A stretch of 44,346 nt of DNA from a virus. Made by a program: the position numbers and the translations under genes. The DNA lies in UHGV virus genome UHGV-0027446; one strand, 5' to 3'. The notes below the pieces were generated by a model that was not told the DNA's origin, made no database searches, and saw only the letters and a program-made list of their open reading frames with translations. The stretch's first letter is position 1, and each line of letters opens with the position of its first letter. This document shows positions 4,871-44,346 of the stretch, piece by piece.

Positions 4871-4887
4871 TTAAAAAAAATAAAACT

Positions 4888-6982: not shown

Positions 6983-7170
6983 TTCGCCACCAGAACTAAC
7001 TCTTTACGCCCGAACGCCGTAACGTTACCAGTTACATCTTCGATAACCAGTTTACCGTTCGACTCGACGTACACTGTATCAACGGCAACAGGGCGACGGG
7101 TCTTAACGTTGAAAATCATGTCGCCAGGTACGATGTCGCGGGCTGGTTTGCGGTCATATTCGTGTTTCAT
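6979..7170 (-). CDS. hypothetical protein
   Basis: 63-codon ORF translationally coupled (ATGA) to helicase; preceded by promoter 7204..7232. Confidence 0.4.
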   Translation of the reverse strand: MKHEYDRKPARDIVPGDMIFNVKTRRPVAVDTVYVESNGKLVIEDVTGNVTAFGRKELVLVAK

Positions 7171-7200
7171 TTCTAAATTCCTTATATTGTTGGTGTGTGA

Positions 7201-7485
7201 TTAACTATAATAGTTCGCTATTAGGTCGTCAACCTGTTTAAACGAACCAACGACAAAAACATTTGCACCACGTTTACGCATACGCTCGTGCTCTCGTAGC
7301 TGGTGCGGGTCAGGCTTCGTGTTTTCGTCTTTCTTAACCTCGACGAACCAGATGATGCCGCCGGGGAGGATTACCAACAGGTCGGGGGCGCCTCCTCTAT
7401 TTTCGTACGACAATTTGCGTACGAGGCCCCCCAGGGCCTCAAATCGGTCTTTTGCGTATTTCTGAACACGGCCCTCTTTAGTCAT
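7201..7485 (-). CDS. VRR-NUC domain nuclease
   Basis: PDLLVILPGGIIWFVEVKK PD-(D/E)XK-type core; probable start at internal ATG (MTKEGRV), track ORF starts at TTG 7500. Confidence 0.6.
   Translation of the reverse strand: MTKEGRVQKYAKDRFEALGGLVRKLSYENRGGAPDLLVILPGGIIWFVEVKKDENTKPDPHQLREHERMRKRGANVFVVGSFKQVDDLIANYYS
7204..7232 (-). promoter_or_regulatory. sigma70-type promoter, family A (TTGACG-N17-TATAGT)
   Basis: Minus-strand reading TTGACG acctaatagcgaactat TATAGT; shares spacer motif with promoters at 11734 and 14400. Confidence 0.45.
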
Positions 7486-7720: not shown

Positions 7721-7848
7721 TCCAGTACCCACAAATAAATTGCTACTAGCATACCCAATACGGCGACCATCATGCCGTATTGACCCTCGTGACAGTAGAC
7801 ACCGGCGGCGAAGCCCGCCAGTACCGCGATAATCAGTTTACTTAGCAT
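7717..7848 (-). CDS. small hydrophobic membrane peptide (43 aa)
   Basis: Hand-translated MLSKLIIAVLAGFAAGVYCHEGQYGMMVAVLGMLVAIYLWVLE; start overlaps last codons of polymerase gene. Confidence 0.25.
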   Translation of the reverse strand: MLSKLIIAVLAGFAAGVYCHEGQYGMMVAVLGMLVAIYLWVLE

Positions 7849-10800
7849 AACGCTTCATCTCCGCGCCTTCCGCTACAAGAGGGAAGCCCTCTGCCCATTC
7901 CGGCAATTCGCACATCAACCGCCCAAGCTCTGCGACATTGTATTCTGGTAAATCTGGCGTCTCGCAGATAATCTCATCGTGAACATGAAGCACAATAGGA
8001 TAGCCGTTTGCCTCTACGTTCAGCAGTGCATTAGCCAGCAAATCACGGCACAGCGCCTGAGTGCAGTTTTCCACCAGTTTACCAGAGTAGGTGTACTGGA
8101 AACCCCACTGCCGTGTTAACTGGTTTTCACCCTGGTACTTGATGCGGACGTTAGTAGACACCTTCCCGTCTTCGTCTGTCTCTTTAGACACGCTTAACCC
8201 GACTCCGGGGTAAGACATAACGCGGCCCGACGGCAGCGTCATGCGCAACCACCAACCAGCGACTTTGTTGCCGTTGCTATCTGTCTCTACGTTGCGCGAA
8301 AATTTAACGCCGCGTGGCCCTGCAGTGAACTCTTTGCCAGGATTACGGATAGCCGCCATAGCCGCATCTTCAATATCCCGCCAGAACGCTACTGTTTCCG
8401 GGTGTGACTCACGCCACATGCGCTTGATAGCGTCGCAGGTACGCCACACTTTCTTATCAAGAATATACGATGGTCGGTCATCCTTTTCACCGGGCCGCGG
8501 AGGTCGCTTGGCTTCCTGAATACGCGCCCATTCATATCCGCGTGCAGTAGCGGCCCATATATGGTCGGGGAAAGTACCGTCCATTGTTTTAGCCATATCA
8601 ACAAGATTTAAGCCGAGGTTTTTAGCAAACTGAACGAAAGCGCCGACGCCGCCTGCGTAGCCGAGGCCCAATTCACAGTTATGCGCCACAAGAAAGCCAG
8701 AGTCTGACGCTATAAGAAAACGGTTACCGTCTTCCACATCAATCAGGTCGTAAACCGGCTCGCAGTAGGTTAATTTCCCGTTCAAGCTCAGCAATGCGGG
8801 CAACGGCTGCATCATATTTTCGTTGAAGCTCGGGTATTTGCCGCCTGTTACGGCAGTTTTCAGAACGGCTGACAAACCGAATGTTTCCAGGTTCGTAGTT
8901 ACCGTCTGTGTCGATTCTGTCCATTTCGAGGTTTGGGTCGTCCCAGCCTTCCAGAGTTTGAACATATCTAAGAAACGACCTTTTATCAGTCCTCCACTGG
9001 TTAAATACCGTGATGCCCCTGGCGCCATAGTTTTTATAGCCTTTGTCATTAGGTTTTGTTGTTCGCGATATCGCCGCGGACAGCCGGTTGAGCAATCGCG
9101 CTCTGTGACTGTCATCTGGCATCGCATCCTCGTAACAGAAATACTGTTTACGATATTTTTTTGTTGCTTCAAGTGCGCAGCGGTTACATTGAGTGGTTTT
9201 ACCTCTTCTAACATTGTCGTACCCGACGCGCCCCGGAATCTCTCCGCAATCACATTGAGCAAGTAGTTGTCTATGACCTTGTCGTTTTGGTAACTCGCGC
9301 AGGATAACCAGGCGTCCATACCTCTCTCCAGGGCGAGGCCCATCATATATTTGTTTGAAACGAGTTGCTTTGCCGCCTTCCAGGAATGCGTCAATATTTT
9401 GTGGTCTTCGGTCATTAGAACCCCGTCCACATTTATCACTGGTTTCCACCCCATAAGGTGCGCGCCTTTTGTATTCACCCATTTTTCACCGTTCCATACT
9501 TTATCTGTTGATGTAACCGCCATAATATCCTTAAATCCACCATCGGTCAAAACTTGGGTATGGCGGTGAAGACAGGCCTTGCCAATCTGGCGCAGGTCAC
9601 TACGGCTTTCGAGAATGTAATCGGGGTCCATTCCGAACATCTTACCCGCAGTTACACAGTAAATATCCAGTCCCGCACGGAAAGTATCGAGAGCGGTTTC
9701 TTCTCCCGCCAGCCATGCCAACCCGCGTCCTTCAACGTTAGAGTAATCGGCGACTACAAACTTATGTCCGGCTTCCGGTATGATGCAGCTACGCACCGTC
9801 GATGCCGTTAGTTTGGCCACATCAAAACGGCGATGCGCACGGCCTTTAAACAACAGGTCGATTCCGTAGGACAATGGGTGTGTTACTCGCCACCAGTCCT
9901 TCTCTGACATCCAGTCATAGCGTACTTTCTTCTTTTTATTCTTCGGGTCGTCGTGATAGTACCCGCGCGCCAGGTTCTGCGGCTGAAAGCCTTTGCCCGC
10001 AAATCGTAATGTACGCTTCGCTCCGCCATACTGGATGCAACCACGACGGCGGTCGTCCGACGAGCGGCCCAACAGCAGCGGGTTATATTTCGTTGACGCG
10101 GTAGACGCGGCTCCGAGGCGCATTTCGATAATCATGCGGGCGTCGTCCGGTAAATCATCATCCGCCAACAAGTCATTCAGCGTTGACTTCTGCGCGTTGT
10201 GGATGCGGTGCGCGGGTGCGAGTTCACGCAGAATCGGCAGAAAGTCTTTACCAGTAAGCGAGCCGCCGTATTTTCGTTGGGCTTCTTCCTGTAACTGCGC
10301 TTTGTGTTTCTCCACGGCTTCAATCGCGGCTTCTGCCAGCGCGACGTCTACCTTAAACCCTCGGTCATTGATTAACTGGTCCAGCTCAAGTACACGGTCC
10401 TCGAACTCTGAGTTACCCCACCGCGGCAGCTTATGGAAGACTTCACGCATCGCAGTGATGTCGCTCACGGCGTACTTGATGAACAGCGCCCACTCGTCCG
10501 GGTGTGTTTCGGCGGTGTAGCGGCGGATTTTGTAGTTCTTCGGCGTAGGTTTAGAAAAACGCTGAATCAGCGCCTTGCCGCGTTTGTCTTTTGCGTTGTC
10601 TGCGGACACGCCCAACACTTCGCACAAAGCATCAAGTGAACCCGGCAGCGCGTGACGAAACGCCCAAATCATCGTATCAATGGTGTTGTTTACCGGAATA
10701 TCAAAACCCCAGCAGTGTTTCATGATGAGCCTGTCGAACATTGAACCGTTGTGCCACACCATCTTGATACGGCTGTTCGGTTTAACCAGACGGCGTAGCG

Positions 10801-10987
10801 CGCGGTGCAAATCGCCAGGCATGTCGCTGCCGTCTGTGCAGTCCCATACCTGTACGGGCTCGTCGTCAAAAGCATAAGTACAGATGAGCACTTCGGTTGA
10901 CGGGTGTTCGGCGTAAGCGTAGGAACCGACTTTCTTTAAATCGACTCCGGAGAATGTTTCAAAGTCTAAGTAGAGTAATTCTGGCAT
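7838..10987 (-). CDS. family-A DNA polymerase with 3'-5' exonuclease domain, interrupted by an intein
   Basis: Exo I motif YLDFETFS; motif A VVADYSNVEGR; motif B split by a 299-codon insertion; likely start at ATG (MPELLYLDFE), track ORF extends to TTG at 11017. Confidence 0.85.
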   Translation of the reverse strand: MPELLYLDFETFSGVDLKKVGSYAYAEHPSTEVLICTYAFDDEPVQVWDCTDGSDMPGDLHRALRRLVKPNSRIKMVWHNGSMFDRLIMKHCWGFDIPVNNTIDTMIWAFRHALPGSLDALCEVLGVSADNAKDKRGKALIQRFSKPTPKNYKIRRYTAETHPDEWALFIKYAVSDITAMREVFHKLPRWGNSEFEDRVLELDQLINDRGFKVDVALAEAAIEAVEKHKAQLQEEAQRKYGGSLTGKDFLPILRELAPAHRIHNAQKSTLNDLLADDDLPDDARMIIEMRLGAASTASTKYNPLLLGRSSDDRRRGCIQYGGAKRTLRFAGKGFQPQNLARGYYHDDPKNKKKKVRYDWMSEKDWWRVTHPLSYGIDLLFKGRAHRRFDVAKLTASTVRSCIIPEAGHKFVVADYSNVEGRGLAWLAGEETALDTFRAGLDIYCVTAGKMFGMDPDYILESRSDLRQIGKACLHRHTQVLTDGGFKDIMAVTSTDKVWNGEKWVNTKGAHLMGWKPVINVDGVLMTEDHKILTHSWKAAKQLVSNKYMMGLALERGMDAWLSCASYQNDKVIDNYLLNVIAERFRGASGTTMLEEVKPLNVTAAHLKQQKNIVNSISVTRMRCQMTVTERDCSTGCPRRYREQQNLMTKAIKTMAPGASRYLTSGGLIKGRFLDMFKLWKAGTTQTSKWTESTQTVTTNLETFGLSAVLKTAVTGGKYPSFNENMMQPLPALLSLNGKLTYCEPVYDLIDVEDGNRFLIASDSGFLVAHNCELGLGYAGGVGAFVQFAKNLGLNLVDMAKTMDGTFPDHIWAATARGYEWARIQEAKRPPRPGEKDDRPSYILDKKVWRTCDAIKRMWRESHPETVAFWRDIEDAAMAAIRNPGKEFTAGPRGVKFSRNVETDSNGNKVAGWWLRMTLPSGRVMSYPGVGLSVSKETDEDGKVSTNVRIKYQGENQLTRQWGFQYTYSGKLVENCTQALCRDLLANALLNVEANGYPIVLHVHDEIICETPDLPEYNVAELGRLMCELPEWAEGFPLVAEGAEMKRYAK
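8678..9574 (-). mobile_element. intein inserted in polymerase motif B
   Basis: Starts CLHRHTQVLTDGG (block A), has LMTEDHKILT (block B), ends YDLIDVEDGNRFLIASDSGFLVAHN with Cys at +1; excision restores RQIGKA-CELGLGYAGG. Confidence 0.7.
8739..9482 (-). CDS. HNH homing endonuclease, encoded in an alternative frame within the intein
   Basis: 247-codon ORF, same strand as polymerase but a different frame; YGRLVIL, QCDCGEIPGRVGYDNVRRGKTTQCNRC, KGYKNYGARGITVFNQW, LEMDRIDTDGNYEPGNIRFVSRSENCRNRR. Confidence 0.55.
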   Translation of the reverse strand: MGEYKRRAPYGVETSDKCGRGSNDRRPQNIDAFLEGGKATRFKQIYDGPRPGERYGRLVILRELPKRQGHRQLLAQCDCGEIPGRVGYDNVRRGKTTQCNRCALEATKKYRKQYFCYEDAMPDDSHRARLLNRLSAAISRTTKPNDKGYKNYGARGITVFNQWRTDKRSFLRYVQTLEGWDDPNLEMDRIDTDGNYEPGNIRFVSRSENCRNRRQIPELQRKYDAAVARIAELEREINLLRAGLRPD

Positions 10988-11007
10988 GGTATTTCGACCC
11001 TTAGTAA

Positions 11008-11027
11008 AAAGGCCCAATGAAGGGCCT
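11008..11027 (-). terminator. intercistronic hairpin / attenuator between SSB-like gene and polymerase gene
   Basis: AAGGCCC-loop-GGGCCTT followed on the minus-strand transcript by UUUUUACU; lies in the 30-nt gap just upstream of the polymerase RBS. Confidence 0.45.
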
Positions 11028-18708: not shown

Positions 18709-18899
18709 TGAGGACTCGAATAATTAATGTCGATTATGTGCTGCCGCCGGGGTATGGCGACCATTCTTTGCGCCACTTTGGTGTTTCGGTCGGCGATGAG
18801 TTCGAGGTTACGTCAAGTAATGATTATGGATGCACAGTCGAACACTGCGGAGAGGAACTGTACGTGCGTAGACGAGAATACGTAATTCTGGAGGACTAA
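18699..18899 (+). CDS. hypothetical protein
   Basis: ORF overlapping previous gene end. Confidence 0.35.
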   Translation: MPLMRTRIINVDYVLPPGYGDHSLRHFGVSVGDEFEVTSSNDYGCTVEHCGEELYVRRREYVILED

Positions 18900-19317
18900 G
18901 TTATGAGAGAAGCATTCGAACGGTGGGCCATCGTCGAGGGTCTGCCGGTTAACAAGGGCTCGAAGAAAGAATACCTGAACGTTAAGACGCGTCTCGCGTG
19001 GCGGGCGTGGAAAGCTGGTGCGCAATCTGTGGTGAATAAGGGGTGATTTAAGGGCGAGTGGATTAAGTGTAGTGAGCGGATGCCTGATAGCAATTGCTTG
19101 TATCTTTGCTGTGGGACGTATTTTGAAGGGGGTGAACCAGGTTACATTCCTGCTTATTTCTATACCCATCAAACCAATGGATGAGCGGAGCGGCAGCCGG
19201 TAGAGGATGACTGCAACCCTCGTGAAGTAAGTGTAACTCACTGGATGCCGTTACCTGAGCCGCCGGAAGTGTGATGTCATATTGTAACAATAGTTTGGGA
19301 TTTTACTGAGTGACTTA

Positions 19318-19356
19318 CGCTGCTGTGTAGCAGCGTATCATTTTTCTCATTTTTGT
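19318..19356 (+). terminator. rho-independent terminator
   Basis: TACGCTGCT-GTGT-AGCAGCGTA stem-loop followed by TCATTTTTCTCATTTTT. Confidence 0.5.
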
Positions 19357-19407
19357 TCTATTTCACTAAACGCAACAATCGAAGCGACTATTGCAGGAGA
19401 TGCAACA

Positions 19408-19638
19408 ATGAAACTAACGAAACGACAGGCAGAGACCTTACGGGAAATCGCAAACGGCAGAACTATGCTCAGGGGCAGGTTCGACCGGTACTGGTGGCAA
19501 GATTCTGATGAGTTATGCACTATGGTCGCCCGACGTCTCCGTAGCAAAGGGCTTATTAGAACTGTGTATCTCAGTGCCACTCGTGATGTGGTTCAGATAA
19601 CCGTGGCAGGTGAAAGCGAGTTACTAAAACACCAATAA
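19408..19638 (+). CDS. hypothetical protein
   Basis: ATG after GCAGGAGA SD. Confidence 0.4.
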   Translation: MKLTKRQAETLREIANGRTMLRGRFDRYWWQDSDELCTMVARRLRSKGLIRTVYLSATRDVVQITVAGESELLKHQ

Positions 19639-19645
19639 AATTTAC

Positions 19646-19674
19646 TTGCACGCTGAGCTAGAATAGGCTACTAT
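19646..19674 (+). promoter_or_regulatory. sigma70-type promoter, family B (TTGCAC-N17-TACTAT)
   Basis: TTGCAC gctgagctagaataggc TACTAT, then conserved leader with GAGAGGAGAG SD. Confidence 0.5.
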
Positions 19675-19705
19675 TCATTTACACAAACGAGAGGAGAGAC
19701 AGAAG

Positions 19706-19843
19706 ATGAAATACGAAAGATACATAATTATGGACGGGGTTAAAAAATTGAGCGGATGGTGCCGGCTAGATTGGGCTCGTGATGCACTCGATTTTTATAT
19801 TTCAAACGGGCTAACAACAGCACGTATCGTACCCATTCATTAG
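19706..19843 (+). CDS. small hypothetical protein (45 aa)
   Basis: Hand-translated MKYERYIIMDGVKKLSGWCRLDWARDALDFYISNGL...; strong SD. Confidence 0.3.
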   Translation: MKYERYIIMDGVKKLSGWCRLDWARDALDFYISNGLTTARIVPIH

Positions 19844-19867
19844 TTCTAGTGGGAGGAGAGACCGAAG

Positions 19868-20287
19868 ATGGGTAACAAAAACGAAGTATTCGAGTACCTG
19901 ATTGACAAACTACGGCAGCAGGTAACTAACAACCAGTGCGAAGACCTGGCGCATGAGGTGCAGTCACTTAAGAACCAGTTACGTGACGCGTCGGCGCAGA
20001 TTAAGGAGTTGCATCTGGCATTGGCCAAGGCTACATGCGATGTAGAGGCTTATAAACTTATCCGCGAATGTGGGTCTATCGATGGCGGTCGGCGATATGT
20101 AGTGGGTGAACATGTGCCCGGGGCAACGGTAAATTGTCGGTGTACCCCGACGCCTGTACCGCCAGAACAATCCGGTTGCCGTAAAGAGGATACCCAGGAA
20201 TGGCCCTACCGTTTCTATTATGTAGTGACAGATGGCTCCGCGCCGTTCGGTACGAAAGTATGTAAAACGTGCGGGGGATACTTCTGA
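19868..20287 (+). CDS. Cys-rich hypothetical protein
   Basis: ATG after GGGAGGAGAG; multiple CxxC pairs in C-terminal half. Confidence 0.45.
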   Translation: MGNKNEVFEYLIDKLRQQVTNNQCEDLAHEVQSLKNQLRDASAQIKELHLALAKATCDVEAYKLIRECGSIDGGRRYVVGEHVPGATVNCRCTPTPVPPEQSGCRKEDTQEWPYRFYYVVTDGSAPFGTKVCKTCGGYF

Positions 20288-20490
20288 TGACCAGCATCTT
20301 ATTTATATGGGTATTGTCGGCGGGCCAGATGCAACTAGCGGCATCAGAAACGTTTTACTCGATGGAGGCGTGCCAGTCAGCGGCACGCGCCGCGGAGAAC
20401 GCGCACTTCCTGTTTCAGGGCGACAAGCCCAACGATTCAGAGGTACGCGCTATATGCTCACCCAAGCGACTTGGTAAACAGGAGAAGTGA
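20287..20490 (+). CDS. small protein with N-terminal hydrophobic signal-like segment
   Basis: MTSILFIWVLSAGQMQLAASE...; ATG overlapping previous stop. Confidence 0.4.
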   Translation: MTSILFIWVLSAGQMQLAASETFYSMEACQSAARAAENAHFLFQGDKPNDSEVRAICSPKRLGKQEK

Positions 20491-20492
20491 TT

Positions 20493-20783
20493 ATGGTGCA
20501 GAGATATGAGTTTAAAGATATGGATGCTAGTCCGTACCACCCGTATTACGAGATGGTGGAGAGCGACAAAGGTGACTGGGTGGGCTATGAAGACTACAAG
20601 GAACTTGAGCGTAAGTTCAATGAACTCAGGGCGAGGCGTGTGCGGATACCCAAAGGCGCTTTCGACACTTTAGCGCGGGCAGAAAAAGCGGAAGCTGAGT
20701 TACAGAAATACAAAGACCAGTTCCCTGATTACGTCGAGTGTGCGAACTGTGGGTCGGTTACACATGTGGACGGGGTGGAGTGA
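20493..20783 (+). CDS. hypothetical protein, paralog 1 (MVQRY...GDWVGYEDY family)
   Basis: AGGAGAAG SD; shares N-terminus and GDWVGYEDY motif with next gene. Confidence 0.45.
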   Translation: MVQRYEFKDMDASPYHPYYEMVESDKGDWVGYEDYKELERKFNELRARRVRIPKGAFDTLARAEKAEAELQKYKDQFPDYVECANCGSVTHVDGVE

Positions 20784-20995
20784 TGGTACAGAGATACTTA
20801 TTACAAGGCGGTTTAATAGGGCCGAACGACGAAGGTGACTGGGTTGGTTATGAAGACTACGCGAAACTCGAAGCGCTGTATGCAGCCGCGATAGAACTTA
20901 TGGTGTCTGTGCATAACCGCTATAACACCGATGCATCTCCTGCACTACAAGAATTGTACGAGAAAGCGAGTGGCGCTAATGAGCCTTGCAACTGA
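20783..20995 (+). CDS. hypothetical protein, paralog 2 (MVQRY...GDWVGYEDY family)
   Basis: ATG overlapping previous stop; tandem paralog. Confidence 0.45.
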   Translation: MVQRYLLQGGLIGPNDEGDWVGYEDYAKLEALYAAAIELMVSVHNRYNTDASPALQELYEKASGANEPCN

Positions 20996-21272
20996 CATCC
21001 TGAAACGAAGCGGCCTTGTGCCGCTGTCACCTAGAGCGAACACCCGGATATACAAGCGCCGCCGTAACGCGCTGTACCCGGAGATTCAGGCCAGACGTAA
21101 GGCTGTCCGCGCCTGTGGGTTCCAGAACGGGAAGGCAGTGAATCTCGGTGAGTTCAAAACAAAGGAACGCGCAGTAATCGCAAACCGGTTATTTAATTAC
21201 TGGAAATCGCTGGGGCATGATGATGTTCCGACGAAACCGCAGAGACGACAATACATCTGGAGACATAAATAA
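20979..21272 (+). CDS. basic hypothetical protein
   Basis: Internal ATG of track ORF 20931..21272; start uncertain. Confidence 0.35.
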   Translation: MSLATDILKRSGLVPLSPRANTRIYKRRRNALYPEIQARRKAVRACGFQNGKAVNLGEFKTKERAVIANRLFNYWKSLGHDDVPTKPQRRQYIWRHK

Positions 21273-21347
21273 ACTGTTATTAGGATAATTCCTACCCGTG
21301 CTATCCTCCAGTTACTGCATACTTAATACGCACCTGGAGGATTCATC

Positions 21348-21656
21348 TTGGATAAATTTACTGAAACAGTGACAGGCTGGCTTCTCGCTGCCGCTCTGGC
21401 TGGCGGGGTAATCGGGCTAAGGCAACATAAGTCCGTTATTTCTGGCCCCATCGACGGCTTCTGCTTTATTGCAACTGGCTTCACTTGCGCCGTGTTTGGT
21501 GCACCTCTTGCCGCTCAATGGTTCGGCATTACCGGCGAACGTGAAATAGCTGGCCTCGGATTTATCATTGCCATTCTCTGGATGCCCATCTATTCCCGCC
21601 TCTCCGGTATCGTCGCCGGAGAATACATCTCACGTCGAGGAGGCACAGATGACTGA
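21348..21656 (+). CDS. holin-like membrane protein (three predicted TM segments)
   Basis: TTG start 6 nt after GGAGGA; three hydrophobic segments; immediately upstream of endolysin. Confidence 0.5.
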   Translation: MDKFTETVTGWLLAAALAGGVIGLRQHKSVISGPIDGFCFIATGFTCAVFGAPLAAQWFGITGEREIAGLGFIIAILWMPIYSRLSGIVAGEYISRRGGTDD

Positions 21657-21921
21657 GTTATTCTGGTTCGGCGGTATGCTGGCAATCGGGGGCGCATCGC
21701 TGTTTAATGTATATCACCCCAGCGTTGACGACGGACTATTCGGTCGGGTGCTCTATATCCTGACTGCTATTGTTTGCGCCGCGGGGTGTATCCACCTGTT
21801 ACAGGGCAGCATGTCACCGACGCTGCCTGAGACATTAATCACATTAGTCGCGCTGCGCCAGATTCGCCAGGCGTGGCTGTCGTACGGAGGACATAAGCGT
21901 GTCTCGAAACATTTCAGATAA
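21649..21921 (+). CDS. second holin/antiholin-like membrane protein (two predicted TM segments)
   Basis: ATG after AGGAGG; MTELFWFGGMLAIGGASLF and YILTAIVCAAGCIHLL hydrophobic segments. Confidence 0.45.
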   Translation: MTELFWFGGMLAIGGASLFNVYHPSVDDGLFGRVLYILTAIVCAAGCIHLLQGSMSPTLPETLITLVALRQIRQAWLSYGGHKRVSKHFR

Positions 21922-22387
21922 TGGATTGCATTTTACCGCCGCGTTTGAAGGATTCCGCGGAACTGCGTACCGTGCTACGCCGAACGAGAAGTACCTGACG
22001 ATAGGCTACGGTCACTACGGTCCGGACGTAACCCCGGGCAAGACCATCACTCCGGGACAAGGACTCCTGTTACTAAACCGAGATATGGCTAAGGCGGTAT
22101 CCGCAGTTGATGCAGCAGCACACCATTCACTGACACAAGCCCAGTTCGATGCGGTGTGTGACCTGGTATTTAACGCGGGTGCTGGTGTAATTGCAGCTAC
22201 TACTGGCACAGGTAAGGCGCTGCGTTCCGGTGATATTGTAACTCTGCGGGCTAAGCTGGCGCTGTTCATCAACCAGAACGGCAAACCGTTACTTGGCCTG
22301 CGTCGTCGTACAGCCGGTCGTCTGGCGCTGTTCGACGGTAAACCGTGGCAGGAGGCTGAGGCTATTGGGCGCGCGGTGAAAGGTTGA
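21899..22387 (+). CDS. endolysin, phage lysozyme-like (T4-lysozyme/GH24-type)
   Basis: FEGFRGTAYRATPNEKYLTIGYGHY catalytic-region motif; GTG start after GGAGGA. Confidence 0.8.
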   Translation: MSRNISDNGLHFTAAFEGFRGTAYRATPNEKYLTIGYGHYGPDVTPGKTITPGQGLLLLNRDMAKAVSAVDAAAHHSLTQAQFDAVCDLVFNAGAGVIAATTGTGKALRSGDIVTLRAKLALFINQNGKPLLGLRRRTAGRLALFDGKPWQEAEAIGRAVKG

Positions 22388-22450
22388 CACCTAAGACTAA
22401 TCCGACGATACTTAAATCACCTCCTGTCCCATCCCTCTGCTCTCCAGTTT

Positions 22451-22483
22451 TATCCCGGCCCTGACCCAGCCGGGATTTTTTTT
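22451..22483 (+). terminator. rho-independent terminator
   Basis: ATCCCGGC-loop-GCCGGGAT followed by TTTTTTTTAT. Confidence 0.6.
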
Positions 22484-22505
22484 ATCTGTTTTCTGCAATG
22501 ACTAG

Positions 22506-22534
22506 TTGACTATTACCTGTGACCCTATTATATT
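22506..22534 (+). promoter_or_regulatory. sigma70-type promoter (TTGACT-N17-TATATT)
   Basis: Near-consensus -35, 17-nt spacer containing ccctattat as in family B. Confidence 0.55.
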
Positions 22535-22567
22535 TACTTCATCGACAACGAGAACGGAGTAGAGAAG

Positions 22568-22645
22568 ATGCGTAATTTTCATAACGAACATGTGATGCAG
22601 TTCTATCGCCATAATCTGAAAACTAAAGGAGTGTTTGGAAAATGA
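22568..22645 (+). CDS. small hypothetical peptide (25 aa)
   Basis: Hand-translated; GAGAAG SD; ATGA coupling to next ORF. Confidence 0.2.
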
Positions 22646-22791
22646 AAATCACAGATATCGAAGCATTCAAAGACGCGCAACTTATGGCGCGCATTGCGGT
22701 TAGTAACCTGAACAACAGCATTCCGGCGGATGCGTTCTTGTTCGCCGCGATGCAGACACTGAAAGCAGCTTATGCGGGAGAGAAGAAATGA
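22642..22791 (+). CDS. small hypothetical protein (49 aa)
   Basis: Hand-translated [26 protein letters not shown]...; AGGAG SD. Confidence 0.3.
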
Positions 22792-22946
22792 GCGAACAAG
22801 GTCAAGTAAGCCAACCATTACGAGTAGGCCGTAAAGTCAGTCACACCCCGTTTCCGACACGTGAAGAACTGATGAAACGTAACAGTTTCCCCGGGCCGGA
22901 CAAGAACAAGTATCTCAATCGCATGTGGGGAGCACGCAAAGTATGA
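22788..22946 (+). CDS. small hypothetical protein (52 aa)
   Basis: Hand-translated [22 protein letters not shown]...; ATGA coupled both sides. Confidence 0.3.
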   Translation: MSEQGQVSQPLRVGRKVSHTPFPTREELMKRNSFPGPDKNKYLNRMWGARKV

Positions 22947-23116
22947 CTAACAACGAATATGAGAAACTTAGCGTCGAATCCGCGACCGGTGAGTCTGAAA
23001 TAGCGTGGATTGATGCCCACATCGAGCACCACTTACGGCAGGTAGATAAACTTATGGAGCGTCGCCGTGAACTGATTAACCGCTTCAACCTGAACAAGGG
23101 TGACACCAATGCCTAA
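22943..23116 (+). CDS. hypothetical protein
   Basis: Internal ATG of track ORF 22925..23116, coupled to upstream ORF. Confidence 0.4.
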   Translation: MTNNEYEKLSVESATGESEIAWIDAHIEHHLRQVDKLMERRRELINRFNLNKGDTNA

Positions 23117-23348
23117 AATTACAATCACATCGCTCGAGCGCAGTATCCTGGTGCTTGAGTCGGAGAAGCAGACGTTAGGCGGGCAACTGTCAATTAACGG
23201 TGAGTTTCAACTGGAGGCGTTTAAGTTGTTACTTGAGCGCATGAAAGCGGACGAAAAGCCTTGCGAGCACGATTACTACATACGTGTTGTTGGTGGGTCC
23301 CGACGTATCACATGCCTGAAATGTGGTGAAGTGTATGGGTGCACCTGA
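23109..23348 (+). CDS. hypothetical protein with C-terminal CxxC...CxxC
   Basis: AGGGTGA SD; CEHDYY...CLKCGEVYGC. Confidence 0.4.
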   Translation: MPKITITSLERSILVLESEKQTLGGQLSINGEFQLEAFKLLLERMKADEKPCEHDYYIRVVGGSRRITCLKCGEVYGCT

Positions 23349-24478: not shown

Positions 24479-24493
24479 AATAACCAACCCACA

Positions 24494-24518: not shown

Positions 24519-24610
24519 ACATCCCGCCCAATCACCTTATATAATCCCTTTAGACGCGTAGGGCGCGTCTGGTGCGCTCTGATGGTCAGACGCATACGCA
24601 AGGGGATTCT

Positions 24611-25123
24611 ATGAAGCTGAAACTCAAGCAGCCATCACCAGAGGTGGTGCAAGCTGCACATGAAGAAGCTGTTAGCGCAAACCGTCGCCGTAAACGGCCG
24701 CGCGGAAAACAGAGCCTTTATCAATCGTCCCGTAATTCTGCCGCGTTGTGGGACCCGGACTATTGCGACGAATTGATTCGATTCTTCGACCGCACGTCGT
24801 GGAAGCTTGTGCCTACGTCTAAGGGTGATGAACGCCCGCTGATTCAGGATAAACCGCCGTCTCTCGCCCGCTTCGCCCTGCACATCGGCGTCACTATCCC
24901 AATTATTAAGCTGTGGCTGCGCGAGATTCCTGCATTTGCCGAAGCCTGGGAAACAGCACAGGCGCTGGAAGAGGCGTATTTCACTGAGACAGGGGCCGCG
25001 GGTATCTCTGCTACGTTTGCTGCCGCTAAGCTGGGCCTGAATAAGAAAGAAGAATCGACTGGCGAGGGTTCTGAACCTATCGAGATTCGTTTCGTTAAGG
25101 CTGTTAAACCGGGGGGCGAGTAA
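24611..25123 (+). CDS. terminase small subunit
   Basis: Immediately upstream of and overlapping terminase large subunit; basic N-terminus and HTH-like LARFALHIGVTIPIIKLWL. Confidence 0.55.
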   Translation: MKLKLKQPSPEVVQAAHEEAVSANRRRKRPRGKQSLYQSSRNSAALWDPDYCDELIRFFDRTSWKLVPTSKGDERPLIQDKPPSLARFALHIGVTIPIIKLWLREIPAFAEAWETAQALEEAYFTETGAAGISATFAAAKLGLNKKEESTGEGSEPIEIRFVKAVKPGGE

Positions 25124-26358
25124 TGGATATTCCATTAACAGAACCCCAACAGGACTTTGTATTCAGTACAAAGACACATCCAGCTATTGTCGCTGGACTG
25201 GGGGCAGGTAAGTCCCGCGCGGCAACGATGCGCCTTTTGTATCTTATGTTGCGCGAGCGCGGGATAAACACCCTGTACACCATGCCTACGTATGACCTGT
25301 TGAAGCTGCGCGCCATCCCTGGGGTGGTTGATGACCTGAATATGATGGGGCTTAAGTATGACCTCAACAAATCGGAATACAGTATCCACGTTAAGGGGTA
25401 CGGCACTATGTTTTTCCGGTCATACGACAACCCGAACCGTCTAATCGCTTTTGAAGTGGCGCATTCTGTCGCAGACGAACTTGACGTGCTTACTAAAGAA
25501 CAGGCATCTCTGGTGTGGCGTAAGATTTCAGAGCGTACCCGACAACCATGTAGGGGTGGGAACAGTATTGCCGCCGTGACTACACCTGACCAGGGATTCT
25601 CTGGATTTGTGTACGACTATTGGGTTACTAACGCCGACAGTTCTACGGAACTGATTAAGGCATCTACATTGTCGAACCCATATTTACCTGAAGGCTACGT
25701 CGAGCAGATACGAAGGAACTACGACGCGGCTTTGGCCGATATGTATATCCACGGTGAATTTGTCAGTTTGACGGCCAATAAGGTGTATCACTATTTCAAG
25801 CGAAGCACACATGACTCCGCCCGCACCTTGCAGAACGGAGACGCTCTGCATATAGGGCTGGACTTTAACATCGGCGGCTGTTGCGCCACCGTGAGCGTTA
25901 TCGAAGACGGCAACCCGACGGTTGTTGATGAGTTTGTCAGTCATAATACCGACGATTTCGTCAATAACGTCAGGATACGGTACCCGGGCCATACGGTTAC
26001 GGTTTACCCCGACGCCTCAGGCCGCTCAGGCCACACTAACGCATCATTATCCGACATAGGTATCATCGAAAAGGCCGGCTTACGTGTTAACGCTCCAAGT
26101 AAGAACCCATTCGTTAAAGACAGAATAAACGCGGTTAACGCGCTTTTGTCACATAGCCGTTTGAGGGTTAACACTTCAAAATGCCCTAAATTAACGCAGT
26201 CACTGGAAACGCAGGGGTATAACGATAATGGCGAACCGGAGAAGTTTAAAACTCACCCGGCTATTGACGACTGGAACGACAGTTTAGGTTATTGTATGCA
26301 CAGGTTGTTCCCTGTTGTCCGCCCTGTTATCAACACTCCTGTCAGATTCGCACTTTAA
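25123..26358 (+). CDS. terminase large subunit
   Basis: Walker A GLGAGKS, Walker B VADELD, C-terminal nuclease-type acidic motifs (GLDFN...). Confidence 0.8.
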   Translation: MDIPLTEPQQDFVFSTKTHPAIVAGLGAGKSRAATMRLLYLMLRERGINTLYTMPTYDLLKLRAIPGVVDDLNMMGLKYDLNKSEYSIHVKGYGTMFFRSYDNPNRLIAFEVAHSVADELDVLTKEQASLVWRKISERTRQPCRGGNSIAAVTTPDQGFSGFVYDYWVTNADSSTELIKASTLSNPYLPEGYVEQIRRNYDAALADMYIHGEFVSLTANKVYHYFKRSTHDSARTLQNGDALHIGLDFNIGGCCATVSVIEDGNPTVVDEFVSHNTDDFVNNVRIRYPGHTVTVYPDASGRSGHTNASLSDIGIIEKAGLRVNAPSKNPFVKDRINAVNALLSHSRLRVNTSKCPKLTQSLETQGYNDNGEPEKFKTHPAIDDWNDSLGYCMHRLFPVVRPVINTPVRFAL

Positions 26359-27869: not shown

Positions 27870-29285
27870 TCACTTATTCCACACCAATTTCTCTTGTCCG
27901 CTATCCCATATGCGGGATACACCTTCCTCGGCGTACCATTCCGACTGAGTGAGACCCTCTGGCGCTTTGTTCCATTTTTGCCGTGATTCTGTTTTAGTCG
28001 CATTGTTTACGACGATACGGAAGCCGCATCTCACAGAAGCCTTTTTAAACCCCGCTGATAAGTATGCTTCTCCGGTAAATAAATCCCGGTCAGTGTAGGT
28101 AAAACCGTCGGTGATGCTATAACGGCGTACTGCGTAAGTCCATAGCTTTGACAGCCCTCCGACCACCGAACATGACGTAGCGTACCGCACAAGTTCCCAT
28201 TCGCCTTTTCTACACGTCAGCGTCATTACCGCGACAATCTTCTCTTCATACACAAGGCTGATATACTTCGTCGAGTTACGGAATCCTTGTATGTGGTTCT
28301 CCTCCAGAAAATATTCTGCGCGCAGTTTGTTAATCTCTTTTACATGGCATTTGCGGGCGAAAACGCGCAAAGAAGAGACGCCAACGGAATGGCTGATTAT
28401 TTTCTTTATTATTTCTTTTTTATGCAGCCATAGCTCGTCCCTTATTGACAGGAGTCGGAACCCTCTTGCCTCAACGGCAACTCTTTTCTCCATGTGATAC
28501 TTTCTCCCCTTCCCGGCAGCTTCGCTGTGCCAGTACAGGCCGTTTATTTCTATAGCCAGATTATGTTGTGGTATTAAAATATCTATCTCTCTTGGGTGGA
28601 TAAGACTTCTATCATTCCGACGATATTCCACCCCCATGCTGTCGAGAAATTCACAGACTTCATCCTCCACTTTACTACGCCCAAACGACGCACACCGCGG
28701 GCACCCTCTACCCTGAAAGATGTTACCAAGCGTAGCGGCCCATTCATGGCCTTTTTGACACCTCAGTGCCGACGGCATACGGCAGATATCCCCTGAATAA
28801 GACACCAGTTCAAAACCAGTGCCGCGTAACCTTTCCTCTATTTCGCCGATCTCAAGCCTTTTTCTGTTAGTGCTGCAATTCGGGCAATGACTTTTACCCC
28901 TTAAAACGTCGCTGCCGGTAGCGGACCAGACGAACCCGCATTTACATCTGAACGTTGATTTCCCACTGACAGCACCCGCGTAGCGAACACATTCAACCCC
29001 ATTAGGCCACTCTGCTACTTTCGCCCGTTTTTCCTCCGCATAGCATTGCGGGCAACCATGACCGTTCAGGACGGTATTAGCCTTTGTATCCCACACATGC
29101 CCCCTACGGCAGCGGAATTTAGACTTAAGTTTAGAGTGACCCGCATACTCAATTACGACTATCCCCCGTGATTCTAGTCTCAGGTTTATATCTTCTTCGG
29201 TTAAACGTCTGGACCCCATTAAAATATCCTCCACTTCTTCTTCTAGTATAAAGATTGCGCATATACATGTATCACAGCAAGACAT
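27870..29285 (-). CDS. multi-domain nuclease-like protein: three zinc-ribbon repeats + Vsr/PD-(D/E)XK-like core + C-terminal domain (homing-endonuclease-like)
   Basis: Three repeats of F(R/K)C..GH.W......(L/F).G.GCP.C; REIDILIPQHNLAIEINGLYWHS...ARGFRLLSIRD; alternative start at internal ATG 29219 after GGAGGA. Confidence 0.55.
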   Translation of the reverse strand: MSCCDTCICAIFILEEEVEDILMGSRRLTEEDINLRLESRGIVVIEYAGHSKLKSKFRCRRGHVWDTKANTVLNGHGCPQCYAEEKRAKVAEWPNGVECVRYAGAVSGKSTFRCKCGFVWSATGSDVLRGKSHCPNCSTNRKRLEIGEIEERLRGTGFELVSYSGDICRMPSALRCQKGHEWAATLGNIFQGRGCPRCASFGRSKVEDEVCEFLDSMGVEYRRNDRSLIHPREIDILIPQHNLAIEINGLYWHSEAAGKGRKYHMEKRVAVEARGFRLLSIRDELWLHKKEIIKKIISHSVGVSSLRVFARKCHVKEINKLRAEYFLEENHIQGFRNSTKYISLVYEEKIVAVMTLTCRKGEWELVRYATSCSVVGGLSKLWTYAVRRYSITDGFTYTDRDLFTGEAYLSAGFKKASVRCGFRIVVNNATKTESRQKWNKAPEGLTQSEWYAEEGVSRIWDSGQEKLVWNK

Positions 29286-39872: not shown

Positions 39873-40064
39873 CTACTTCTCTTTCACGTTCGAGTTGCAA
39901 GCCCATATTAAAATAAATAACCACGGCAGCAGAACCCAACCAAGAAACAGGTTAGCCATGAATATAGCTAACTTCGCTTTATGGTTACGGAAGTACGCAA
40001 CCAGGAAAGGCGCGAAATAAGCGAGCAGTGCAAACAGAATTAAGGAAACTGGTAAACTGGACAT
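39873..40064 (-). CDS. superinfection-immunity (Imm)-like small membrane protein
   Basis: Two TM segments, LLAYFAPFLVAYFRNHKAKLAIFMANLFLGWVLLPWLFILIWA; internal ATG after AAGGGG. Confidence 0.5.
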   Translation of the reverse strand: MSSLPVSLILFALLAYFAPFLVAYFRNHKAKLAIFMANLFLGWVLLPWLFILIWACNSNVKEK

Positions 40065-40651: not shown

Positions 40652-41016
40652 ACGCGCTGTACAGGTTCGCCACCTACGAGTTTGTGGATAAGCATAAAAT
40701 CAGAGAGTTTGATTCTATAGCTGACGGTCACGAACAGGCGCTTATCGCGATGGGTGTAATCGATAAGAAAAAACGTGCAGCGCGACGGGGTGGGCCAGAA
40801 TGCCCGCCCCTTTTTATATCCACCTTTGAGACGTACTGTGACATTAAGTTTACGCGACACGTGCGCGAGGACGCTGTAGTATTGTTCGCAAGAGAATCCG
40901 TTACGTGGCAAGACCTGAAAGCCTATCTCGATGTTACGCAAAAACAGCTTAGCCTGTTCGAGATAGACATTATCATGGGCTTAGAAGCAATCTTTGAAGG
41001 TAGAAATCATGGCTGA
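40621..41016 (+). CDS. tail assembly chaperone frameshift extension (gpT-like, -1 frame)
   Basis: -1 frame open from 40621 overlapping last 10 codons of G; no SD before first in-frame start codon (GTG 40684); ends overlapping tape-measure ATG. Confidence 0.4.
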   Translation, partial: RRAQNITGKVDALYRFATYEFVDKHKIREFDSIADGHEQALIAMGVIDKKKRAARRGGPECPPLFISTFETYCDIKFTRHVREDAVVLFARESVTWQDLKAYLDVTQKQLSLFEIDIIMGLEAIFEGRNHG

Positions 41017-43273
41017 TACCGCTAGCTTGATAGTACGAGTATCCTCGACCGGCGTCGATAAAACCACATCACAACTGAACGGACTTACCAAGGCGGCTGG
41101 CGCTGCCGCTGCTGCCGTTGTCAGTCTGGAAACCGCTAAGCAGGTGTTCAGTGCGCTGGTGGACTCTCAGCGCAACTTCGATAAGCTGAACTCCGGCCTC
41201 ATCACAATGACTGGAAGCGCAGAGAACGCGGCTAAGGCTTTCAGCGTCCTGCAACAGTTCGCAAAAGAGACCCCGTACGGTCTCAATCAGGCGGTCGAGG
41301 GCTTCACTAAACTTGTAGCCCTCGGTCTTAACCCCAGCAAAGAGGCGTTAATCTCCTACGGCAACACCGCGGCGGCTATGGGTAAAGACCTTAATCAGAT
41401 GATTGAGGCAGTCGCCGACGCCAGTACATTCGAATTTGAGCGCTTAAAAGAGTTCGGCATCAAGTCGTCGCAACAGGCGGATACAGTTTCTTTCACGTTC
41501 CGTGGTGTTACTACCACGGTTAAAAAGAACTCCGAAGAGATTCAGAAATACCTGTTAAACATCGGTAACACTGATTTCGCCGGGGCGATGGAGACGCGCT
41601 CGAAGACATTAGACGGCCAGTTATCGAGCCTCGCGGACTCTTTCGATGGCCTTGTACTTGCGGTGGCGCAATCAGGTTTCGGCGACGCCGTAGGTGAGCA
41701 AGCCGCGAGAGCGGAAGATGCTATCACAGCACTCACCGACGCTATCGCGTCTAATGAGATCACCGCCACGCTCCAGGATTGGGTGACACTGTTCAATGAA
41801 TCGTTCAAGTTTATTTCTGATGCCTTAAACGACCTGGCATACGATACTGAGGACAAATCCGCTGATATGTCCGATTCGCTGGGTACTATACCAGACGCTA
41901 TCCGTGAGTGGTTGCCCGACATCCAGCAGACGTTCCACGAGGTTATTGCGTGGTTCCAGCGCATTGACGATTACGCCGTAGCGCTTGGCCAGACCCTCGC
42001 CGACGTGTTTGACCCGAGCAAAACGGCAGCGCTCACATTTAAAAAACTGACTGCAGAGGCTGATGCTGCATACGACGCCAGCATAAAACGCGCAGAGGCA
42101 GAATCACAGGCCATTACCAACAGGTCTAAGCAGCGTAAGAAAGAAATTGAGGAACAGCGCAAGCAGTACAATGAGCGCAAGAAGCAAGAGATTGACTTAG
42201 CCAGCCTTGTTAATGGGAAGGGCGGAAAGGGCGGAACTGGCGGAACCGGAAATACCAACGACAAAGACGCGAAAGCCGCCGCTAAGAAAGCAGAACAATT
42301 GCGTAAACAGGCCCAGGATTATCTGGACACTTTGGCCCGTCAGAATAACGACGAGTTAAAGGCAATTGACGCGCAGGAACAGCAGAAACTGGCTAAAGCA
42401 AAAGAGTTTTACAGTCAGGGCGCGTTGTCTCTGAAAGAATACGAGCAAGCTAAAACGGCTATTGTCCTCGAAGCAGGGCAAAAACGACAAGATGAACTGG
42501 ATAAACGCCAGAAAGAAGCCCAGGAAAAGCAGCAGAGCGCCGATGCATATGTGGCCCAACTGCAAGCCAGCTTCGAAGGTGAATCCGCAGAGCTTGACCG
42601 CCAGTATCAGATAAAGCAGGATAAGCTGGACAAGTTCCACGAAGAAGGATTGATTAGTGAGGAAACGTACCAGAACGCTCTTGCTGACCTGCGTAAACAA
42701 AAATCAGATGCACTAATCGAAGATGACCTGTCGACCTGGGGTACTATTGCCGCTAATGTTAAAAATGCCTCACGCGAGAACACCGCTTTGTATAAAGCCG
42801 CGGCTATCACGGAGGCCACCATTTCCACATACCTGGCGGCGAACAAAGCACTGGCAACTGGCGGCCCAATCCTCGGCCCAATCCTCGCGGCGTCGGCGGT
42901 TGCGCTCGGTCTGGCTAACGTGGCTAAAATAAGTTCCGCCCGTGAGCAGGGTGGTCAGTTATCCGCAGGCCAGATGTCTACCGTCGCGGAACGCGGCAAA
43001 CCCGAGGTTATCATGCCCGCGGGTGCATCGCGTGTGCGCACCGCGCAGCAGATGAAAGAGATTATGGGGCAAAACGGCGGCGGCCCGTCCGGCGGCGATA
43101 ACGTCACCATCGTCAACAACACCACCGGACGTGTAGATTCCGCGGTAACAGAACGTGATGACGAAGGGCGTTTACGTATTATAATCAGTGAAACAGTAGC
43201 GTCGCAGTTACAGGATAACAACTCACCGATTTCTAAAGCTCGCCGCTCTACTCGCGGTCAGCCGGGGTATTGA
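41009..43273 (+). CDS. tail tape measure protein
   Basis: ~755-codon ORF, Ala/Gln/Lys-rich coiled-coil, Gly-rich GKGGKGGTGGTG segment, after G/T chaperone pair. Confidence 0.8.
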   Translation: MADTASLIVRVSSTGVDKTTSQLNGLTKAAGAAAAAVVSLETAKQVFSALVDSQRNFDKLNSGLITMTGSAENAAKAFSVLQQFAKETPYGLNQAVEGFTKLVALGLNPSKEALISYGNTAAAMGKDLNQMIEAVADASTFEFERLKEFGIKSSQQADTVSFTFRGVTTTVKKNSEEIQKYLLNIGNTDFAGAMETRSKTLDGQLSSLADSFDGLVLAVAQSGFGDAVGEQAARAEDAITALTDAIASNEITATLQDWVTLFNESFKFISDALNDLAYDTEDKSADMSDSLGTIPDAIREWLPDIQQTFHEVIAWFQRIDDYAVALGQTLADVFDPSKTAALTFKKLTAEADAAYDASIKRAEAESQAITNRSKQRKKEIEEQRKQYNERKKQEIDLASLVNGKGGKGGTGGTGNTNDKDAKAAAKKAEQLRKQAQDYLDTLARQNNDELKAIDAQEQQKLAKAKEFYSQGALSLKEYEQAKTAIVLEAGQKRQDELDKRQKEAQEKQQSADAYVAQLQASFEGESAELDRQYQIKQDKLDKFHEEGLISEETYQNALADLRKQKSDALIEDDLSTWGTIAANVKNASRENTALYKAAAITEATISTYLAANKALATGGPILGPILAASAVALGLANVAKISSAREQGGQLSAGQMSTVAERGKPEVIMPAGASRVRTAQQMKEIMGQNGGGPSGGDNVTIVNNTTGRVDSAVTERDDEGRLRIIISETVASQLQDNNSPISKARRSTRGQPGY

Positions 43274-43276
43274 TTA

Positions 43277-43771
43277 ATGGGCGATTTGAGATTCCCTATG
43301 TCCCTTCGCCCGATAGTGTCGAAGGGGTACTCCCAAACGCGAGGGAGTAATATCTGGCGTACAGAAGTTCAGGGCGGCTTACCCCGCCAGGGGCGAGACA
43401 CGTACTTCGAGCCGGTTCCTATTAGCGTAACGCTTGTCGTGTCTTCTCTCGGGCGCCAGGCGTTTTATAGCTTCCTGAACAACATCGACGGCGGGGCGTC
43501 CTCGTTTATCATGCCGCATGATACGGGTATGGGCATCGAGGACCACCTGGTACTCATCACCTCAACGATTAGTGACAGCACCGACGACGGCAAGAACTGG
43601 GTAATCTCGTTCACTGCTACAGCGGAGCGAACAGCGATTCAGGAAGATACCTGCCTTACTAAGAATCTACCGGATTTGTTCGGTTGTTATGGCGATTGCT
43701 TAGGTGGGTTCCTTAAAGCCTATGGAGCCGCGCAATCAACGTTTCCACGAATTTGGGACCCGATGCAATGA
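43277..43771 (+). CDS. minor tail protein (distal tail, gpM-like position)
   Basis: First gene after tape measure; synteny. Confidence 0.45.
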   Translation: MGDLRFPMSLRPIVSKGYSQTRGSNIWRTEVQGGLPRQGRDTYFEPVPISVTLVVSSLGRQAFYSFLNNIDGGASSFIMPHDTGMGIEDHLVLITSTISDSTDDGKNWVISFTATAERTAIQEDTCLTKNLPDLFGCYGDCLGGFLKAYGAAQSTFPRIWDPMQ

Positions 43772-44283
43772 GTCAGGAATCAGTAGAAGCAGCCTATCGC
43801 CGTAAACTGGCATCTAACCCCGACGGCGAACTGGACTACATTACGCTTGAAATAACGCACCCGCTTCTCTCGAAGCGGTGGTTGCTTGTGCGCGGTACGT
43901 CTGACCTTACCGCTACTCTTGAAACCGGGGAAACTGTTACGTTCGAGGCCACGCCTATGGACGCCAAGAACGCCGCGAACAATAATGACATGGACCAGAC
44001 AGCATCATTCTCGCTGCCGGATGTTCTTAACATTCTTGATGAAGAAATGGACCGCATCCCGTATAGCAATACAGAGCTACCTAAATTCATATTCCGCCGT
44101 TATGTAAGCACCGACCTGTCGTACCCGTGCGATGGCCCGGTGGTATACGAGTTGCAGACTTTGACGCAAGAAAAAGGCGTGTTCACCGCAGAGACCGGAA
44201 CACCTATGCTAAACCAAAGGCAGACCGGAATCCTTATGACGCCGGAAGAAATACCGCTGTTGCGTGGGGTTCTTTTGTCATGA
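43768..44283 (+). CDS. minor tail protein (gpL-like position)
   Basis: ATGA coupling to previous gene; synteny. Confidence 0.45.
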   Translation: MSQESVEAAYRRKLASNPDGELDYITLEITHPLLSKRWLLVRGTSDLTATLETGETVTFEATPMDAKNAANNNDMDQTASFSLPDVLNILDEEMDRIPYSNTELPKFIFRRYVSTDLSYPCDGPVVYELQTLTQEKGVFTAETGTPMLNQRQTGILMTPEEIPLLRGVLLS

Positions 44284-44346
44284 GTATCATCGACTATACG
44301 GGAATCCCTTATGACTTCCGTCGTTACAATTGTTGGCATCACGTGC
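44280..44346 (+). CDS. NlpC/P60-like tail assembly protein, N-terminal part (truncated by window end)
   Basis: MSIIDYTGIPYDFRRYNCWHHV...; ATGA coupled to previous gene; frame continues into positions 1..299. Confidence 0.4.
   Translation, partial: MSIIDYTGIPYDFRRYNCWHHV

Follow-up and report, generated by a model that had tools for sequence, protein, structure and literature searches.

The ends of a 44,346-bp Kagunavirus genome sequence are an assembler's cut inside a small tail gene with a predicted NlpC/P60 fold

The genomes of Kagunavirus (Guernseyvirinae) phages such as RP180, SZH-1, HSE2, 26 and phiSD1 are 41–45 kb in size and exhibit the same gene order round the circle, including a 121-aa ORF located between a DUF1833 minor tail gene and an 849-aa J-like gene. 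Many GenBank records in the genus label the product of this ORF as "hypothetical", and some describe it as "peptidoglycan endopeptidase" or mention an NlpC/P60 structural match. Assembly of permuted genomes has been described for Salmonella phages, where the SPAdes contigs carried identical 77-bp ends, the right-hand copy was removed and genes were split (PMC9409062).

Two described proteins can be compared with the product of the 121-aa ORF. The tail tip assembly protein K of phage lambda (gpK) is a C40 family peptidase of 199 aa that is likewise encoded after gpM- and gpL-like genes and before a J-like gene. It contains a partial Prok-JAB match (residues 10–56) followed by an NLPC_P60 match (residues 63–176). 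The gpK protein is required for tail assembly, and it has been neither detected by mass spectrometry nor resolved in virion structures (PMC10721106, PMC12617516). The second protein is g14 (Rcc01697) of the Rhodobacter gene transfer agent RcGTA, a small stand-alone cell-wall peptidase of 150 residues, the gene of which adjoins the hub and megatron (J-like) genes (PMC7296036). This protein degrades peptidoglycan, is needed for tailed particles, and has been proposed to ride in the tail lumen and then be ejected (PMC7296036).

The sequence analysed here, referred to as the window, is the whole 44,346-nucleotide stretch of the UHGV virus genome UHGV-0027446. Both of its ends fall within the tail genes, which are arranged as follows:

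41009–43273, + strand: tail length tape measure protein, 754 aa as called; PHROG 1538 and Pfam TMP_3
43298–43771, + strand: minor tail or virion structural protein in the lambda gpM position, 157 aa in the calls on identical contigs; PHROG 384
43768–44283, + strand: minor tail protein in the lambda gpL position, 171 aa; DUF1833 and PHROG 396
44280–44346, + strand: split gene, 5′ piece, with codons 1–22 and the first base of codon 23 (MSIIDYTGIPYDFRRYNCWHHV followed by the C of CGC)
1–299, + strand: split gene, 3′ piece, with the last two bases of codon 23, codons 24–121 and the TAG at 297–299
290–2839, + strand: J-like central tail tip protein, 849 aa, TTG start; PHROG 469
2852–4870, + strand: tailspike, 672 aa, with a conserved N-terminal adaptor and a beta-helix C-terminal module

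Direct reading shows that the ATG at 44280–44282 overlaps the TGA at 44281–44283 of the preceding tail ORF in an ATGA junction, and the 171-aa DUF1833 gene is translationally coupled to the split gene. The 67 nt from 44280 to 44346 comprise 22 codons and one base. Codon 23 is completed by window bases 1–2 (C + GC = CGC, Arg), and the frame remains open from base 3 until the TAG at 297–299, while the other two frames stop at codons 16 and 5. Joining gives an ORF of 366 nt (121 aa plus the stop codon; MSIIDYTGIPYDFRRYNCWHHVRRVRGDVGLPTP...EIEFWR), in which the putative catalytic Cys18 is encoded on the 5′ piece and both His83 and His94 on the 3′ piece. The end of this ORF is overlapped by 10 nt by the start of the J-like gene. 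An earlier note on this DNA had claimed the ATGA coupling, the in-frame ends (67 nt + 2 nt) and a joined product of ~120 residues, and its arithmetic is correct. No residual terminal repeat was found in the window, where the first and last 10–30 nt each occur once. Frame agreement between two unrelated ends has a probability of 1/3 by chance, so it falls to external sequences to decide whether the join is real. This chance agreement is also the sole support for reading the window boundaries as the physical ends of a linear genome, with an in-frame join that is coincidental.

A 718-nt probe built across the junction was compared with the GenBank phage records and matched 11 of them, in each case as one piece and internal to the record. 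The matches include Escherichia phages SZH-1, HSE2, 26 and BUCT823, Raoultella phage RP180 and Shigella phage phiSD1. Ten of the 11 records are 91–94% identical over at least 99% of the probe, and the eleventh exhibits 79.8% identity over 85% of it. A 300-nt junction probe aligned to RP180 ungapped (92% identity, E = 2e-122), as it also did to HSE2 and phiSD1, and in these alignments the junction sits within more than 50 nt of perfect conservation. A 366-nt ORF is annotated at the same spot in HSE2 (gp057, "peptidoglycan endopeptidase") and phiSD1 (gp6), and the products of these ORFs are identical to the joined product at 110–116 of 121 residues. Within the metagenome collection, contigs in 547 blocks encode a protein identical to the 171-aa upstream protein. 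In eight of the eight places listed, the 121-aa ORF follows the 171-aa ORF with the same overlap and is itself followed by an ORF of 849, 850 or 860 aa; all eight contigs span the junction as a single HSP, three of them with 0 gaps over ~2,075 nt. The outcomes that the earlier note had named as evidence against its proposal were extra sequence between the ends and a joined ORF lacking homologues. The ends join without a gap in the 11 GenBank genomes and the eight contigs, and the homologue search for the joined product returned 95 sequences. An internal and ungapped junction in these records argues against physical ends at the window boundaries, as does the conserved gene that an end at this position would bisect.

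In the RefSeq record of RP180 (NC_048181; 20022–20540 of locus L001), gp27 starts 153 nt upstream of the ATGA-coupled start, which yields a product of 172 aa and an overlap of 157 nt with gp26. The ATGA-coupled start of the 121-aa ORF is used in HSE2, phiSD1 and all metagenome gene calls, and the start given for RP180 gp27 is probably a mis-call.

When the tailspike, tail tube, terminase, helicase-primase, J-like and tape measure proteins were looked up as exact matches, the window's genome was found in three independent metagenome assemblies, with cuts at window positions 21749, 1 and 42376. The first (ENA ERZ27287221, contig k141_1136535, MEGAHIT) was rebuilt whole from four overlapping loci and is 44,487 bp (44,346 + 141), its first 141 nt being the same as its last 141 nt. 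After trimming and rotation, this contig, which is cut at window position 21749, has 0 mismatches to the 44,346-bp window. One of its loci runs from window position 37198 through 44346 and 1 to position 14870 with 100.000% identity over 22,019 nt, and the joined 121-aa protein is encoded exactly in this contig (ORF at 7083–7448 of locus L013). The second assembly (ENA ERZ15270386, Hadza NODE_1031_length_44423, SPAdes) corresponds to 44,346 + 77 and has the same coordinates as the window. Its 3′ end was read, and the last 77 nt are window positions 1–77; contig positions 15123–36358 and 5020–27281 are identical to the same-numbered window positions. The third (ENA ERZ28615407, scaffold_952) is 44,401 bp with a cut at window position 42376, and its composition of 44,346 + 55 comes from length arithmetic alone.

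Three assemblies of one genome, with k-mer overlaps read at the ends of two and indicated by length for the third, identify the window as a circular assembly from which the end repeat was trimmed. The window boundaries are the assembler's cut rather than ends of the DNA. The case matches the circular SPAdes and MEGAHIT contigs described previously (PMC9409062), the Hadza contig being the window plus 77 nt, and nothing of substance is different. The earlier note had offered a circularly permuted or an arbitrarily linearised genome, and of these the arbitrary linearisation is demonstrated, the same circle being opened at other points in independent assemblies. The 22-kb stretch of 100% identity that runs across the junction in k141_1136535, together with the complete rebuild of this differently cut contig, refutes physical ends at the window boundaries and reduces their probability to a negligible level. 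A chance ORF at the junction is ruled out by the collinearity with RP180 and by the independent identical assembly encoding the joined protein. The split gene is confirmed as an ordinary outcome of linearising a circular phage assembly and represents no new biology.

For comparison with RP180, the window was rotated to start at position 24492. The two genomes share 27 collinear blocks with 72–93% identity, which run end to end along the complete RP180 genome (44,851 bp) and account for 34.7 of 44.3 kb. The junction lies inside a single 4,500-nt HSP with RP180 (18827–23323). All modules are present, namely the terminase subunits, portal, head, neck, tail tube, chaperones, tape measure, tip, tailspike, replication and lysis. 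Megablast against 715 records returned mostly Escherichia and Salmonella Guernseyvirinae, and both the genome-wide similarity and the collinearity place the window within Kagunavirus (Guernseyvirinae). The order over the junction (tape measure, two minor tail proteins, split gene, J-like protein, tailspike) is identical in all relatives examined, and assemblies with different cuts share the same closing length. The window is confirmed as a complete 44,346-bp genome of the known, E. coli-type phage genus Kagunavirus. A complete genome of ~44.3 kb with continuous gene order across the junction and no missing tail gene had been proposed beforehand, and this proposal stands with the circular assemblies at 44,346 bp, the end-to-end RP180 collinearity and the unbroken gene order.

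Nothing was found in support of the window being a fragment of a larger replicon, such as a prophage, a plasmid or a longer phage, with genes missing past its ends. The rebuilt contig forms a closed circle of exactly 44,346 bp, the 77-nt end repeat is present in a second contig, and a third is of matching length. The circle contains all of the modules and aligns collinearly over its full length with the complete RP180 genome. The self-closing contig and the RP180 collinearity refute such a fragment, which is left with a vanishingly small probability. The sequence is usable as a complete genome that can be rotated before annotation, for example to the terminase genes, and its two end fragments should be annotated as a single 121-aa gene rather than as two partial ORFs.

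The same genome was sought in the phage collection and no record of it was found. The genome is ~89–94% identical to deposited genomes, and the gene, its position and its NlpC/P60 resemblance are already present in some records. Nucleotide identity to Kagunavirus genomes is 91–94% across the junction and 89–91% for the best records over the 22-kb half that was searched. The window differs from these relatives in its tailspike C-terminal module, in a large terminase with 40% identity, in a 299-aa DNA polymerase intein, and in the presence, between portal and head genes, of a gene for a Hef-like homing endonuclease.

The window represents one full turn of the circular de novo assembly of a Kagunavirus siphophage of 44,346 bp, with the k-mer overlap trimmed and the cut placed in codon 23 of a 121-aa gene that is translationally coupled to both its gpL-position and J-like neighbours. 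Taken as a whole and with its inferred parts, this explanation is regarded as very likely. The position of the cut coincides with a variable site:

44346–44346: C/T polymorphic site (Arg23/Cys23 in the split-gene product), directly before the cut

At this position, C (Arg23) is found in both the window and the MEGAHIT contig, and T (Cys23) in Hadza NODE_1031 and scaffold_952. This is the sole difference found when 13,415 nt of the Hadza contig and 16,841 nt of scaffold_952 were compared with the window. Residue 23 is variable in the protein family, and at least one homologue has Cys at this position. Window positions 1–77 form the first 77-mer without the polymorphic site. In a de Bruijn graph with k = 77, the C and T alleles would reconverge at the vertex formed by window positions 1–77, and this single SNP suggests that the polymorphism probably set the start vertex of the circular path as a bubble vertex. 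No DNA termini or pseudogene should be read into the cut, which is an assembly artefact probably tied to a population SNP.

Closure into a circle demonstrates no more than the bridging of every position by reads. The terminase genes are arranged as follows:

24572–26358, + strand: terminase genes, with the small subunit at 24572–25123 and the large subunit at 25123–26358

The records of several relatives open at the terminase, that of RP180 ~80 nt upstream of the first terminase gene and that of AV104 at the large terminase gene. A pac mechanism was predicted by PhageTerm for Shashou (PMC6776780), as was headful packaging for the Jerseyvirus SeF1 (PMC9409062), and the K1G/K1H terminase clade groups with headful packagers (PMC5582158). 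Termini were not found for fBC-Eco01, and a cos mechanism is described, without data, in the text of one Kagunavirus paper (both PMC9825357); the Golestan paper gives nothing on termini. Based on these relatives, the virion DNA would probably be linear, terminally redundant and circularly permuted (headful/pac), and such DNA would lead assemblies to close into a circle.

The large terminase exhibits a weak Terminase_6N/6C match, and a sequence search against the PDB returned no match for it. It is 40% identical to the large terminase of RP180 and of nearly all other Guernseyvirinae and has no nucleotide similarity to them. Identity of at least 95% was found in only 8 of 930 matching phage-collection records, one being that of Escherichia phage AV104 (99.3%). 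On either side, the DNA of the small terminase and portal genes shares ~90% identity with RP180, so the divergent large terminase between them looks like a single-gene mosaic replacement. A large terminase with only 40% identity to the usual Guernseyvirinae protein weakens the transfer of a packaging mode from relatives, and it is one of the points in favour of a complete genome with fixed virion ends elsewhere, either cohesive ends or a collapsed short direct terminal repeat, rather than permuted ends. Short-read circular closure does not discriminate between packaging modes, and the cos description in the Kagunavirus paper would also agree with fixed ends. The PhageTerm predictions for two Guernseyvirinae phages, the missing termini in fBC-Eco01 and the many different places at which deposited relatives were opened all argue against them, as do closing overlaps that equal k (141 and 77 verified, 55 by arithmetic) with no longer repeat. 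Considering the packaging of relatives, tempered by the divergent large terminase, circular permutation of the virion DNA is judged likely and fixed ends are judged unlikely.

The joined 121-aa protein matched 0 Pfam families at E ≤ 1 and 0 NCBIfam entries at E ≤ 10, and searches of the PDB with phmmer and profile hmmsearch returned nothing relevant. A mitoribosomal protein that was the only PDB sequence match (E = 1.4) was discarded as noise. The only profile match of the joined protein is PHROG 329, "minor tail protein" (E = 2.8e-11). Among the homologues, 5 of 60 exhibit weak matches to the papain-like Peptidase_C97 (best 0.0047). The 95 homologues are 118–127 aa in length, except for two partial sequences of 72 and 84 aa. 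Across 61 aligned sequences, with identities as low as 42%, the residues Cys18, His83 and His94 never vary. The window's own product is represented by the AF2 model of a homologue with 94% identity (P0001), built on a 60-sequence alignment (pLDDT 84.8, pTM 0.80). Cys18 opens a helix (residues 18–28) in this model and the two His residues are located on adjacent strands. A Foldseek search with the homologue model identified 4xcm (E = 2.9e-4), in agreement with NlpC/P60, and the structure matches in BFVD are viral NlpC/P60 proteins. Alignment to lambda K with hhalign gave a weak match (probability 4.3%, pairwise E = 0.0096, 87 columns), which pairs C18/H83/H94 with a Cys/His/His set inside the Pfam NLPC_P60 region (63–176) of lambda K.

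With respect to the NlpC/P60 family (PF00877, MEROPS C40), the homologue model displays a papain-like alpha+beta fold with the Cys at a helix N-terminus. An ordered Cys-His-His/polar triad is found at the sequence level through the invariance and the hhalign pairing, and the Pfam, NCBIfam and PDB searches gave no sequence-profile match above the family threshold. This evidence supports the assignment of the split gene as encoding a small stand-alone NlpC/P60-fold cysteine peptidase with a putative Cys18-His83-His94 triad, and the protein is modelled as a single NlpC/P60-fold domain throughout. The earlier note had placed an NlpC/P60-like protein in the gpK position, with which the fold, catalytic residues and synteny agree, formal Pfam membership being absent. 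The fold-level assignment upgrades a protein that is often labelled "hypothetical" in the genus.

The gene follows the tape measure, gpM and gpL positions and precedes a J-type gene, and its product is similar to lambda gpK in carrying an NlpC/P60-type domain with Cys/His/His. It is unlike gpK in its size (121 aa compared with 199 aa), in lacking the JAB/MPN part that is N-terminal to the NlpC/P60 domain, in having no PF00877 match and in not being followed by a gpI homologue. Sequence similarity between the two proteins is not significant (hhalign 4%). By its description, RcGTA g14 resembles the split-gene protein in its small stand-alone form and in its gene neighbourhood, and the host and particle type differ. 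The 121-aa protein would be the counterpart of the lambda gpK NlpC/P60 domain and would act at the tail tip, where it would most likely assist in assembly, cleave peptidoglycan as an endopeptidase that is released on infection, or do both.

Strict conservation of Cys18, His83 and His94 favours retained catalysis. A protein with an NlpC/P60 fold might instead serve a non-catalytic structural or assembly role and not hydrolyse peptidoglycan during infection. This would agree with lambda gpK, which is needed in assembly and undetected in virions (PMC10721106, PMC12617516), and with RcGTA g14, the deletion of which abolishes tailed particles and implies an assembly role (PMC7296036). The degradation of peptidoglycan by that same g14 protein (PMC7296036) points the other way, as does the strict invariance of the three residues across the 61 sequences, and a purely non-catalytic role is held to be somewhat improbable. 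For the putative enzyme, one tentative and rather doubtful proposal is that a minimal NlpC/P60 branch, JAB-less and invisible to Pfam, travels in the tail tip of Kagunavirus and is ejected during genome delivery to cleave peptidoglycan, along the lines suggested for RcGTA g14, in contrast to a gpK-like assembly factor that is absent from the virion. An ejected enzyme of this kind, if true, would offer a small and tractable system in which to study what gpK-type proteins do and where they are located, a long-unresolved matter.

Several observations were made on the neighbouring tail genes. The J-like protein also matches PHROG 31, "central tail fiber J", at E = 1.2e-19. An alternative upstream ATG at 43277 would yield a product of 164 aa for the gpM-position gene. 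This gene encodes 157 aa in the window and most relatives and 461 or 453 aa in two related contigs (L010 4612–5997 and L011 4636–5997), where the sequence points to a large insertion or fusion. The tailspike body (3083–4877) has no nucleotide similarity to RP180, unlike the conserved N-terminal adaptor and adjacent genes. Its Pfam matches are a beta-helix and, weakly, an endosialidase N-terminal extension. Where contigs have identical upstream tail genes, their tailspikes are 590–760 aa long with different domains, which indicates a swapped receptor-binding module. A 63-aa ORF with the Pfam domain Imm_superinfect (PF14373) is found on the minus strand at 39873–40064 in the calls on identical contigs, and lies between the tail tube region and the tail chaperone genes, on the opposite strand to them. 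It adjoins a 376-aa ORF that occupies the position of the RP180 "DNA repair exonuclease" and for which weak Metallophos matches were obtained on related contigs.

Two insertions relative to RP180 were noted elsewhere in the genome. The family A DNA polymerase ORF (7838–11017) contains a 299-aa intein on the minus strand at 8678–9574, which reads ...RQIGKA/CLHRHT...FLVAHN/CELGLGY... and features Cys1, a terminal His-Asn and Cys+1. The DNA polymerase of RP180 is uninterrupted at this site (RQIGKACELGLGY), and the insert is unrecognised by Pfam. The polymerase is 1059 aa as the longest ORF or 1049 aa in the calls on identical contigs, compared with 733 aa in RP180. The second insertion is a gene for a 449-aa Hef-like homing endonuclease (27870–29219, minus strand; PHROG 559/3339), which lies in reverse orientation between the portal gene and the Mu F-like head gene and is absent in RP180. 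Its product contains a Pfam DUF4379 zinc finger and a Vsr/MTES_1575 nuclease-like part. In the phage collection, the best match to this protein is 43.5% identical, and the matches include phage Jersey and Klebsiella phages.
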